DNA of 8,214 nt, taken from Candidatus Zixiibacteriota bacterium. Lineage in GTDB: Bacteria; Zixibacteria; MSB-5A5; UBA10806; 4484-95. The stretch's first letter is position 1. Every line of letters starts with the position of its first letter. The position numbers were made by a program. Shown in pieces: positions 1 through 3,000 of this stretch. The stretch is from contig JAOZPT010000075.1 in assembly GCA_029932605.1 (NCBI GenBank), positions 1-8,214 of the forward strand, given 5' to 3'.

Positions 1-3000
1 CAGTCGCTTGAGACCGCAGAGACCGCAGAGAAAATTGTCATTGAGTGATGATGCCGGCTAATGAGCACAGGGCGATGGCCGCGAGTTGGGTTGTTTTCTT
101 TGCGAGATCCAAGTTCAGTGTAGATATCACATCATGGACAGTATCCTTGTTAGGATTCTTACTGGCCGGATATTCTTCGATCATCAATAAAGCAGAATAG
201 CCTTCCTCCCAGAAGGCGGCTTCATCTCCTCAGTAACAACCCTTCTTGACTACTTTTTTCGCGTTGATGTCATATGATTCTGCAAGATTATAAACTCTTT
301 CCGCCAGCCATGAATACTCGGGCCGTGTTACAAGATCAATGTCCTCGTTATTACTTCCGTATGCAATCATATCCAGGTTAAGAGCGGCTACTATTTTCTC
401 TTTATTTCGATCAATCCCTTTAAGGTAGGCCTTGCTTCCGTTTTGGCCTGTCTCTTCTCTTGAAAAGATGATAAATTTTATGGTCTTCTCAAATGAATGC
501 ATAGAAAGTATTCTGGCTAATTCCAGAACTGCTGCACATCCGCTACCGTTGTCGTCAGCCCCTGGGGCATAGACAAGCCTCTTTGAGGACTTCGAGTCGA
601 GATGAGCACAGACTATGACGATCTCCTCGGAGTGCCCCTTGCCTGGAATCGTACCAACGACATTTTTCCAGTTGACTCCCCAGTATTCATATTTGTGGAA
701 ATCGGTCATTGTCAAATATTTTTTTAGTCTTTCGTGCAGATAATCAGCGACTTCAAGCTGCTTTTCGTAAGGATACCTGGTTTCAAAACTTACCAGATCT
801 GAGATAGTACTTTTCATAGCAGAAGGTGAAATATCTGAAATAACCTTTTCGATAAAAGGGACTTTTTTCTGTTTTTTGGTTTCTGAGCATCCGATTAAAC
901 AGGTTATTAATAATATGTAAAAAAAGAAAGGTATGATAATTTTCCCCATTTGTTGTCCTCTTCTGGAATCATTACTTTACTTTTTTCAGTAAAACAGTGA
1001 GAGAGAGAAAATCTAAACATTCTCCTCATCCGGCTTCAAAACAGACTTCTTAAGGCAGAAAAAAATAGGTAGGGATAAACACGCTTTTGATAGGGTTTAA
1101 GACGGATACTCTCGACAAAATGGGATAGGGCCTTTTTACTCATTTTATTTCTAAAATAACGATATCCCAAATCAGAATGAATAAGAGATAACCGATGGTT
1201 CACCTGTTTTTTATGGTCCTTGAAAAACAATTGATCGTCTCTCCACAGTCTTTCAGTAAGCCTTAAATATTCCATGCGTAGTCCGATTTGATGTTTTTCT
1301 GCAGTTAGTTGCGCTGCCTGGCCCATCTTTTCTTTGATATCAGAGCGTTTTTTACACAAGGGCAAATTGATAAAACCTACTGGATGAGTCTTTGAAATAT
1401 ACGCAAAAAGGTAATAATCATGTGTATAGCTAAATCCATTCATACATGGAATTACATCCAAGGCGAGACTTCTTTTTAGCACGGCAGTTGAAGAAAGAAG
1501 GAGGGGACCAAGAAGATATTCAGTAAAAATATTCCCAAAGAGGAAAGTGCCATTTCCATCATGGCAGAGTTCGGGTCCAACCACATTAACTAAAGGCTCT
1601 TCATTCAAAAAGATGGTATTAAGGGTTAACCCATATCTCTGGTATGCCTCCCAGGATTCCTGATCCCTTCCCTGAATAACCCCCTCATCATTAAATTGAT
1701 GAAAATTAGTACAGCAAAGCCCTATCTCAGGTTTTGCCTCCATACACGCTATCTGGAGTTGGAGTTTACCCGGCAGCCACAGATCATCAGAGTCTAACAG
1801 GGCAATGTACTTTCCATGAGCTTCCTTAATGCCCTTGTTTCTTGCTTCACCAAGCCCCTTGTTTTCTTGATAAAAGTATCGGATCTTGTTTTCATACGGT
1901 CTCAGCATAACCTTGGTGTCATCATCCGATCCGTCATCTATCACTACAATTTCCACGTCCGAATAATCTTGAATGAGTATTGAATCTACGGCTTCTGTTA
2001 TGAAATTTGCCCTGTTATAGGTCGGAATTATAACNNNNNNNNNNNNNNNNNNNNNNNNNNNNNNNNNNNNNNNNNNNNNNNNNNNNNNNNNNNNNNNNNN
2101 NNNNNNNNNNNNNNNNNNNNNNNNNNNNNNNNNNTGATCCCTGACAACCAAATCCAGTGTCCTGGCAATTTTTGACATATGTTTCTGATCCAGATCCTGG
2201 TGGATAGGTAGGCCTAGTATCTCCTTTTTCAACCTAACTGCCTGGGGAAAATTTCCCCAGGGAACTTGAGGGTGAAAATATCCCCACCAGGGATGGCTGT
2301 CTATTCCATGTTTCAACAACAAATTATGCACTTTTTCCCTATTCTTGACAAAAATCGGGAAAAAAAGAGGGCATACACCATCTGGGAGAGATGAAAACAG
2401 TGGCCTAATCCCGCCAATTCCTTCTATTTTTTCGAGCAGGCATGCAAAATTCCTGCGCCGGCTTTCAAAAATATCTTTCCAGTCCTGAAATTGAAGTAGC
2501 CTTTTTGATAATAAAGACATGTCCCAATTGGCAACCCTTGGCGAAAAATCGTAGGAATTCGGATGGACCAAGCAGTCACTGCAACCCCCAAATAATCTAT
2601 GAAATATGCGAAAAAATATCCTGGAACTGCTAAGAGCCTTTCCAAAATATCGGGACAAAAACCACAATGGGTGCAACTTATTGCTGCTGGATGGCATGCT
2701 ATTCCATCCTAACATTTCAACACTCCGAAAAAATATGGCAAATGGATTGGGCTTCTCCAAAGTAGGGTGGAAAGAACTTAAATCATTGTTTTTTAAGAAA
2801 AGAGCCCCTCCGTCAGGGAGCGGTAATGTCTTTCGAAGGCTGAAAAACGCGGCATCTCCCTCAGATCCAAGCGGTTCTCCCTGTTCATTAAGACTCAAAA
2901 ACGCATGGGCACAATCTTCAACGAGCAATATCTTTTTCTTCTCACAAAAATCGACTACTTCGCTTGTAACTTGGTCAAAACCTAAGTAATGAATGACTAA

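Follow-up and report, generated by a model that had tools for sequence, protein, structure and literature searches.

The first gene in this window (the whole stretch of 8,214 nt from a Candidatus Zixiibacteriota contig that was analysed) raises the question of whether the in-frame TGA at codon 240 ends a short M28 peptidase or is read as selenocysteine (Sec), and what such a residue would do within a peptidase fold. The reading frame continues past this codon, as an earlier note on this DNA had claimed, and the Pfam M28 match (PF04389, residues 96-290; 121.9 bits against a cut-off of 21.3) and sequence conservation run across it too; the product is 303 aa long (38..949) instead of the 302 aa (41..949) given there (Table 1). 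An AF2 model of the 303-aa product has a pLDDT of 95.9, replacing the previous value of 87.5, and places a last helix at residues 280-298. The protein is a predicted lipoprotein: C21 is nearly invariant (at least 90% of the rows in alignment A1), a crude lipoprotein signal pattern fits 37 of 56 proteins, and the lipobox of this family member was picked out by eye. From comparisons of these sequences, it is very probable that the internal UGA is read as Sec and that the gene is a member of a new M28 selenoprotein family.

Table 1. Features of the Sec-containing M28 gene and its surroundings; AAP is the M28 enzyme of Vibrio/Aeromonas proteolyticus.
Feature	Position	Strand	Basis or remark
Full coding sequence, 303 aa with Sec240	38..949	minus	start ATG at 949, final stop TGA at 40-38
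Shine-Dalgarno-like AGAGG, 7 nt 5' of ATG	957..961	minus	sequence
Putative lipoprotein-type signal peptide, lipobox L-I-G-C21	887..949	minus	by eye from sequence
His116, metal site 1 (AAP His97)	602..604	minus	alignment with AAP
Asp132, bridging metal site 2 (AAP Asp117)	554..556	minus	alignment; Asn in 3 of 55 close homologues
Glu165, general-base position (AAP Glu151, invariant), and Glu166, site 3 (AAP Glu152)	452..457	minus	alignment
Asp193, metal site 4 (AAP Asp179), invariant	371..373	minus	alignment
Cys238, likely Sec partner (C-x-U)	236..238	minus	52 of 53 truncated close homologues and 13 of 13 Sec loci
In-frame TGA, Sec240, aligned with AAP Cys227	230..232	minus	codon 240, alignment, cross-locus comparison
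G-D-E motif (S-D-H in ordinary M28), no zinc-ligand motif	221..229	minus	alignment and AAP ligand list
Bacterial SECIS-type hairpin	200..217	minus	7-bp stem, 4-nt loop opening with GG, -10.9 kcal/mol
Lys268-Asp269 (Tyr-His in ordinary M28); Asp269 faces AAP ligand His256	143..148	minus	alignment
DegT-type aminotransferase (3399-2135) and GT2 glycosyltransferase (2034-1036), upstream neighbours	1036..3399	minus	profile matches
Remainder of exopolysaccharide/exosortase-type cluster: Acetyltransf_6 GNAT, exosortase-associated hydrolase-2-like, GT2, EpsI	3341..8168	minus	profile matches

Much of the evidence for Sec comes from the recurrence of this codon, which stands here in the context K-G-C-Y-U-G-D-E-A-A-F-W. 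A stop codon within the motif C-x-U-G-D-E was found at 13 distinct loci including this one, the 12 others being 32-69% identical to it, and it is TGA in all 13, in DNA that ranges from AT-rich to GC-rich (GC of 0.31-0.70). The open frame continues for 57-77 codons past the UGA and is conserved, with an identity of 38-88% on the 3' side of the TGA versus 32-72% on the 5' side, and in the two closest loci most changes across the 58 codons that follow are synonymous (20 synonymous to 7 non-synonymous and 25 to 10, respectively). Database records mirror this pattern, since 53 of the 55 proteins that are 48-100% identical (P0002-P0056) stop at the residue before codon 240 and the other two are shorter fragments, in agreement with the earlier note. 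The last two residues of the cut proteins are CY in 41, CF in seven, CH in two, CA in two and VY in one (P0041, where Val replaces Cys238), and therefore 52 have a Cys two before the stop codon, again as claimed; nine more distant database proteins stop at C-G or C-A.

The RNA element and the decoding machinery are also in place. The hairpin that the earlier note had described behind the codon was found, its stem beginning 13 nt and its loop 19 nt from the UGA, and 12 of the 13 loci, including the present gene, have all four properties used to define a bacterial SECIS (bSECIS): a loop of 3-9 nt with G in its first two positions, a spacing of 16-37 nt and an energy of <= -7.5 (PMC13188914 Fig. 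2); the remaining locus, L085, falls short in energy (-6.2). All 11 distinct Sec segments have a hairpin in the same register, against 0 of 113 non-Sec M28 segments; folding is more stable than in synonymously reshuffled versions (p<=0.05) for 8 of the 11 and 6 of the 113, respectively. Covariation is modest, with two-sided changes in 2 of 7 pairs, and the stem overlaps the conserved F-W codons. The presence of tRNA-Sec, SelA, SelB and SelD in this genome (G000) was confirmed. SelB, directed by the hairpin 3' of the UGA, very probably places Sec at codon 240. Across the six genomes with the TGA form, SelA was found in five (G000, G042, G043, G165 and G255). In G041, which carries locus L004 on a 2.1-kb contig, no SelA, SelB or SelD exceeded the cut-off and no tRNA-Sec was found, and this genome may be mis-binned. 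The proposal that the family occurs in several phyla thus holds loosely: the gene is present in genomes from three different GTDB phylum samples, G041 being among them.

If the TGA were instead a true stop, the product would be a truncated 239-aa protein or a pseudogene and the hairpin an intrinsic terminator, a reading that could draw on the terminator-like call of a consensus scan, on the lack of detected Sec machinery in G041 and on databases that contain the 239-aa form only. We consider it very improbable: a chance stop would have to be TGA at all 13 of these divergent loci, the conserved frame downstream would go unexplained, and a cut at codon 240 would remove metal site 5 together with the last helix. 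Homologues with Cys in this position also exist (see below), and the terminator interpretation of the hairpin was rejected because the tail after the stem has just 0-4 U of 8 and the frame beyond it is conserved. Genome-wide reassignment of TGA to Trp, Gly or Cys, or a sequencing error, is scarcely credible even though distant M28 proteins have Trp or Gly at position 240, for TGA terminates 365 of 1097 long ORFs in G000, is also the final stop of the same gene and coexists with tRNA-Sec, so that reassignment is largely refuted, and the codon is identical in four independent runs (four studies), with no variant listed in their contigs that cover it. None of the 23 runs listed is of RNA, and they have no bearing on expression.

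Cys-containing relatives, which the earlier note had not found, were identified in three metagenomic proteins (P0124, P0190 and P0146; 33-37% identical) that have the motif C-G-C-G-D-E, with Cys at position 240. In a tree from a quick search (LG+G4, midpoint root), of which the topology alone was used, they fall inside the same 40-row group as the Sec forms (SH-aLRT 95). Their metal site 5 is Glu in P0124 and His in P0190 and P0146. A Hodarchaeota-labelled protein cited previously as a relative (P0052) is a 171-aa fragment that ends short of the Sec codon, and therefore offers no evidence of archaeal use.

Within its own phylum the TGA form was found in G000 alone among 251 genomes (none of the 250 others), and in 40 sampled relatives the matches reached at most 44% identity and all lacked an internal stop. 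In a class sample of 251 Anaerolineae genomes, 47 had matches at E<=1e-52, all free of internal stops, and the C-x-TGA pattern occurred in 3 of 201 genomes, with no M28 gene among them; the same pattern was found in 0 of 251 genomes from the phylum of the Aminicenantes genome G560. Viral contigs contained 67 distant relatives, none with C-x-U-G-D-E, and the 42 plasmid records that match are all below 60% identity, the best 10 at 31-32%.

The claim of an undescribed M28 selenoprotein family is borne out by the 13 loci, the hairpin statistics and a 2026 catalogue of 119 prokaryotic selenoprotein families, whose Table 1 lists no peptidase (PMC13188914). In addition, no NCBIfam 20.0 model exceeded its cut-off for this protein, and a literature search, judged at listing level, returned no Sec-containing M28 enzyme; that the family is missing from current catalogues (the 119-family catalogue and NCBIfam 20.0) is therefore supported. 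UshA-like proteins, of the 5'-nucleotidase/phosphoesterase family, have a two-metal fold and are unrelated to the M28 family of the present gene. They also include predicted bacterial selenoproteins with C-x-U in a hydrolase-family scaffold (COG0737, NF041198; PMC13188914 Table 1; PMC2398784). SaoX and SaoC are likewise exported Sec lipoproteins recognised by truncation at an aligned TGA, but their folds are of the ABC substrate-binding or a novel type, not a peptidase (Haft and Gwadz, 10.1101/2022.07.06.499078).

The closest structural reference is AAP (PDB 1AMP, 3B35, 3B3T), whose fold is alike (Foldseek TM 0.80; VIA Z 37, rmsd 2.4 over 273 residues, 27% identity) and with which the present protein shares sites 1-4, the general base and, in a loop over the metals, a chalcogen residue where AAP has Cys227. 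Unlike AAP, it is a predicted lipoprotein and is encoded next to an exopolysaccharide cluster. Two non-hydrolytic M28 types, GPAA1 and the type I glutaminyl cyclases (Z about 30-31), are structurally more distant; both have the M28 fold with altered metal use, GPAA1 being altered at sites 1 and 5 while the cyclases retain the site-5 His, and the sections of PMC7522609 drawn on here mention Sec for neither. In the alignment with AAP, Sec240 faces Cys227 and G241-D242-E243 faces S228-D229-H230. The earlier idea that S-D-H is a zinc-ligand motif was rejected, because these residues are absent from the AAP ligands listed in Table 1 of PMC7522609 (His97, Asp117, Glu152, Asp179 and His256). Judged by the alignment, the true ligand change is the predicted replacement of His256 by Asp269. 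His is found at site 5 in 184 of 216 aligned distant domains; with Asp269, the present protein departs at this site from the canonical co-catalytic aminopeptidases of the AAP/SGAP type. Among the 13 Sec loci, site 5 is Asp in nine, His in three (L094, L182 and L102) and Asn in one, and the Tyr that precedes it is missing in all 13. The residues of sites 1-4 and the general base are all present in this protein, and His116, Asp118, Glu165 and Asp193 are invariant across a 49-row family alignment. The general base and the His116/Asp132/Asp193 site would thus be kept and the second site remodelled (His to Asp or Asn and, in some members, Glu to Ser), and because of this remodelling the protein is probably not an ordinary aminopeptidase.

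Genomic context offers a further clue to function, as the gene lies beside an exopolysaccharide (EPS)/exosortase-type cluster, in which the aminotransferase and GT2 genes are joined into one listed ORF solely by a 100-N gap. The proportion of loci that share EPS-type neighbours is 9 of 13 for the Sec forms and 1 of 148 for ordinary (non-Sec) M28 loci, a count in which the queries were taken from the Sec loci and kin loci are not independent. They are missing at four GC-rich loci (L008, L015, L181 and L182), so an EPS role is not valid for the whole family. In tetranucleotide composition contig C16 stands out mildly, ranking ninth among 264 chunks. At L084, L086, L087 and L089 a conserved protein of 166-179 aa is encoded upstream; neither Pfam nor Atlas gives it an informative name, and no homologue of it was found in G000.

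Placed by alignment and literature, Sec240 would lie in the loop directly over the two-zinc site, which in AAP is fixed by a C223-C227 disulfide (PMC4012986). The AAP pair is C-x3-C, with the partner four residues back, whereas in C-x-U it is two back, and therefore the two bonds are not the same. Our preferred proposal, which is plausible but stops slightly short of probable, is that the enzyme is an amidohydrolase of the cell surface that tailors aminoacylated exopolysaccharide and has a redox lid of the Cys-x-Sec type. Cys238 and Sec240 would alternate between a selenenylsulfide and the selenol/thiol, so that the pair is a lid that responds to redox state and forms or gates the pocket for the substrate, and not a fixed zinc ligand; in the present subfamily, to judge from the gene neighbourhood only, the enzyme may trim or edit amino-acid or acyl substituents of the exopolysaccharide that the adjacent genes produce.

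That the Sec240 selenolate instead binds the metal as a ligand, or sits on it as a 'selenocysteine switch' that can be removed, and so offsets the lost site-5 His, is unlikely. The AAP loop does sit above the metals, site 5 is Asp or Asn in 7 of 7 core-clade loci and 9 of 55 close homologues have Ser at site 3, but three Sec loci and two Cys homologues retain the site-5 His, so Sec and His loss are uncoupled; Sec and Cys238 are constant across the 13 loci while site 5 varies, and a nearly invariant Cys two residues away suggests a pair. Loss of peptidase activity, after which the M28 fold would serve as the scaffold of a periplasmic protein for redox chemistry or metal binding that exposes its C-x-U, is distinctly unlikely: the general-base Glu is retained among the invariant residues, which suggests catalysis, even if sites 2, 3 and 5 are each variable within the family and known selenoproteins are mostly redox proteins (PMC13188914 section 7). 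An acyltransferase or transamidase, in which Sec would attack a metal-activated carbonyl to give a selenoester, whose acyl or aminoacyl part is then handed on to a polysaccharide, a lipid or a protein processed by exosortase, is quite improbable. GPAA1, described as an M28 peptide synthetase in PMC7522609, sets a precedent for bond formation, and the biosynthetic neighbours (GNAT, ATP-grasp, formyltransferase and exosortase) and the missing Tyr before site 5 would suit such a role; however, structural support for Se reaching a bound carbonyl is lacking, the GC-rich clade is without those neighbours, and a simple scan of G000 for PEP-CTERM proteins gave two weak matches, none convincing.

Whichever role applies, the cut records, close and more distant, amount to a systematic annotation error. 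It is possible, though rather doubtful, that selenium takes part directly in clan-MH metallohydrolase chemistry, as zinc ligand or selenoester nucleophile, in moving or removing amino-acyl groups on surface exopolysaccharide; if true, this would be a non-redox use of Sec within a peptidase fold. Redox enzymes make up most of the 119-family inventory, and here Sec would sit in a loop at the active site of a zinc aminopeptidase fold known from textbooks. As Cys forms occur in nature and the structure of a relative, AAP, has been solved, it can be tested in a hydrolase why Sec is used rather than Cys. In addition, the link to exosortase-type exopolysaccharide hints at a selenium-dependent surface-tailoring step in sediment and vent bacteria.

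Read through its in-frame TGA to a second TGA, the M28 peptidase gene encodes 303 residues, one more than the earlier note had stated (302 aa). The Pfam M28 match (residues 96-290, 121.9 bits) spans the TGA codon, and an AlphaFold2 model built on an alignment of 112 rows, in which Cys replaced Sec, has a pLDDT of 95.9 and its best structural match in Vibrio proteolyticus aminopeptidase (AAP; TM 0.80; Z 37, rmsd 2.4 over 273 residues). Judged by sequence comparison, Sec is very probably inserted at codon 240. A true stop is highly improbable, as termination at 239 would take away helix 280-298 together with the final metal site, and a recoded TGA or a sequence error is scarcely credible, since TGA is a normal stop in the host genome (closing 365 of 1097 long ORFs) and no variant is listed at the codon in covering contigs from four runs of four studies.

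DNA scans placed TGA in the motif C-x-U-G-D-E at a minimum of 12 further distinct loci (L084-L087, L089, L090, L094, L102, L008, L015, L181 and L182), with the near-copies L004/L186, L088 and L180 left out of all counts. Overall, the ten aligned loci are 32-69% identical to the window protein, with 32-72% before the Sec codon and 38-88% after it. Over the 58 codons after the UGA, the two closest loci show 20 synonymous versus 7 nonsynonymous and 25 versus 10 differences, while the two classes are roughly equal in L089 and L090. As the earlier note reported, 53 of 55 database homologues (48-100% identity) stop just before the Sec codon, 52 of these with Cys two residues before the end, and the other two are fragments; these ends were seen mostly in protein records, with TGA-bearing DNA sharing the same visible ends for three (P0009/L085, P0038/L087 and P0046/L086). 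Nine remoter database proteins, one labelled Desulfobacca, terminate at C-G or C-A.

The same note had found no Cys-bearing orthologue, but a search of 50% representatives recovered three (P0124, P0190 and P0146) with C-G-C-G-D-E, which supply the Sec/Cys homologue pair used as a criterion by deep-Sep (PMC12013277). In a 74-row tree from a quick search with known faults in row selection and labelling, a branch (SH-aLRT 95) sets apart a group that contains every one of the 13 Sec rows, the 3 Cys rows and 24 truncated rows; the Cys forms are nested within two subgroups. A separate M28 group (L183 and L184) has Y-C-Y-G-D-D-H, with Cys at the 238 position and without Sec, in genomes that have SelA.

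A SECIS-type hairpin follows the codon, and 12 of 13 Sec loci conform to the bacterial consensus as given in section 5 of PMC13188914; the exception, L085, fails on energy. Controls were run to allow for the conserved F-W codons that the stem overlaps. The same-register motif was present in 11/11 distinct Sec segments and 0/113 non-Sec M28 segments, and stability exceeded synonymous reshuffles (p<=0.05) in 8/11 versus 6/113 (Mann-Whitney p 2e-7, with related loci that are not independent samples). The stem covaries modestly: 88% of cells are paired, two-sided changes occur in 2 of 7 pairs, and 8 of 500 shuffles are equally high. One scan also scored the hairpin as terminator-like, but the tails after the stems are poor in U (0-4 of 8), which argues against a terminator. 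As background, an open continuation plus such a hairpin occurs in 6 of 585 long TGA-ending ORFs of the host genome.

Coordinates of features in the window, its host genome (G000) and other Sec loci
Feature	Location	Strand	Details
M28 ORF, 239 aa, ends C-Y	949-230	minus	ORF call, table 11
In-frame TGA read as Sec	232-230	minus	read-through translation
SECIS-type hairpin	217-200	minus	7-bp stem, GG-starting loop 19 nt after UGA, -10.9 kcal/mol
Final stop, second TGA	40-38	minus	translation
Short tandem GAGACCGCA repeat	1-34		contig start
Run of 100 N	2035-2134		false 787-aa ORF
Four-helix-bundle genes (23S_rRNA_IVP)	window 5804-6007; L102:277-666		within both EPS clusters
Conserved 166-179-aa protein	L084:470-982; L086:1620-2120; L087:4382-4909; L089:408-947		unnamed family
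DUF3179 gene	L008:2230-3183		after Sec-M28 gene
Read-through ORF, 727 aa	G000:C22:1573-3756	plus	TGA at codon 577 (A-M-F-D-G-U-A-G-Q-M)
Two D-C-S-I-U genes	G000:C82:12759-15230 and 16925-19990	minus	CxxU

The claimed Sec machinery (SelA, SelB, tRNA-Sec and SelD) was confirmed in the host genome, whose SelD gene itself contains TGA, and SelA was also found in G042, G043, G165 and G255. A genome search of G041 found none of these four; its TGA-form gene (L004), with a strong hairpin, lies on a 2.1-kb contig and is possibly mis-binned, and SelD was not found in its two phylum neighbours. The gene is patchy, occurring in 1/251 genomes of the window's phylum, 3/301 of G042's and 1/3 of G041's, and in none of the Anaerolineae or G560 phylum samples; the runs that contain it come, by their labels, from hydrothermal vents or marine sediment. 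The window's contig has normal GC and a tetranucleotide distance ranking 9 among 264 chunks. The host genome also carries an exosortase-family fragment and, on C13, a second related exopolysaccharide (EPS) locus, as would fit a transferred island; the contig may also be mis-binned.

Neighbours in the window include GT2, DegT, an Acetyltransf_6 GNAT, an exosortase-associated-hydrolase-like gene and EpsI; other Sec loci add exosortase, ATP-grasp, CapA, formyltransferase, polysaccharide deacetylase and O-antigen ligase. With self-hits removed, at least one of nine query neighbours occurs at 9/13 Sec loci, the four without any being the GC-rich ones, and at 1/148 non-Sec M28 loci (median 9.3 kb); since the queries came from Sec loci, this reflects a common neighbourhood rather than general EPS enrichment. 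A conserved protein (43-52% mutual identity) lies one or two genes upstream in four loci and was not found in the host genome. The DUF3179 gene of L008 comes from a family in which some members are known to contain Sec (PMC13188914 Table 1), and no in-frame TGA was seen within its called ORF. A run of N falsely fuses the DegT aminotransferase and GT2 genes, and the contig starts in a repeat, probably an intergenic family, where, across four runs, numerous further contigs are broken or diverge.

These proteins make up a real, apparently unpublished family of selenoproteins whose fold is already known. No peptidase is among the 119 families in Table 1 of PMC13188914, and a word search of its main text found neither peptidase, hydrolase nor M28; the passages and four supplements of PMC12013277 held no match, and in the BSepDB paper (PMC13326102), at the level of text rather than database entries, the matches among those listed fall in a species list. 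Literature searches, with thin coverage of subscription journals, returned no paper on Sec-containing M28, and no NCBIfam 20.0 model scored above cut-off for the window protein. Elsewhere in the host genome, an apparently exported read-through product on C22, with a SECIS-like hairpin and a frame that stays open for 150 codons past its TGA, is possibly another unlisted selenoprotein. Two genes on C82 appear to be HdrA-like; HdrA is among the known selenoprotein families.

Comparison supports an M28 fold with Sec in a loop above the metal site and an altered site 5. The AAP ligands (Zn1, Asp117, Glu152 and His256; Zn2, His97, Asp117 and Asp179; PMC7522609 Table 1) align to H116, D132, E166, D193 and D269, and E165 falls where the general base stands. 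The G-D-E motif lies opposite AAP S228-D229-H230, which is absent from that ligand table, so the earlier view of S-D-H as a zinc-ligand motif was mistaken; the actual ligand change replaces Tyr-His with Lys-Asp, whereas of 216 distant domains in the alignment 184 have the His and 161 the Tyr. Sec240 aligns with AAP Cys227, whose disulfide with C223 fixes a loop directly above the dinuclear site (PMC4012986). H116, D118, E165 and D193 do not vary. Of 13 Sec loci, 9 have Asp at site 5, 3 have His and 1 has Asn; of the 55 close proteins, 9 have Ser at site 3 and 3 have Asn at site 2. A Zn1 site this loose beside a constant C-x-U would speak for a pairing of Cys with Sec rather than a fixed bond between Se and Zn. 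Selenium as a metal ligand is unlikely, a non-hydrolytic redox or metal-binding protein is improbable, and a GPAA1-like selenoester transferase is quite doubtful. We tentatively propose, at somewhat below an even chance, that the protein would be a surface amidohydrolase editing acylated exopolysaccharide, with the Cys238-Sec240 pair as its redox lid.
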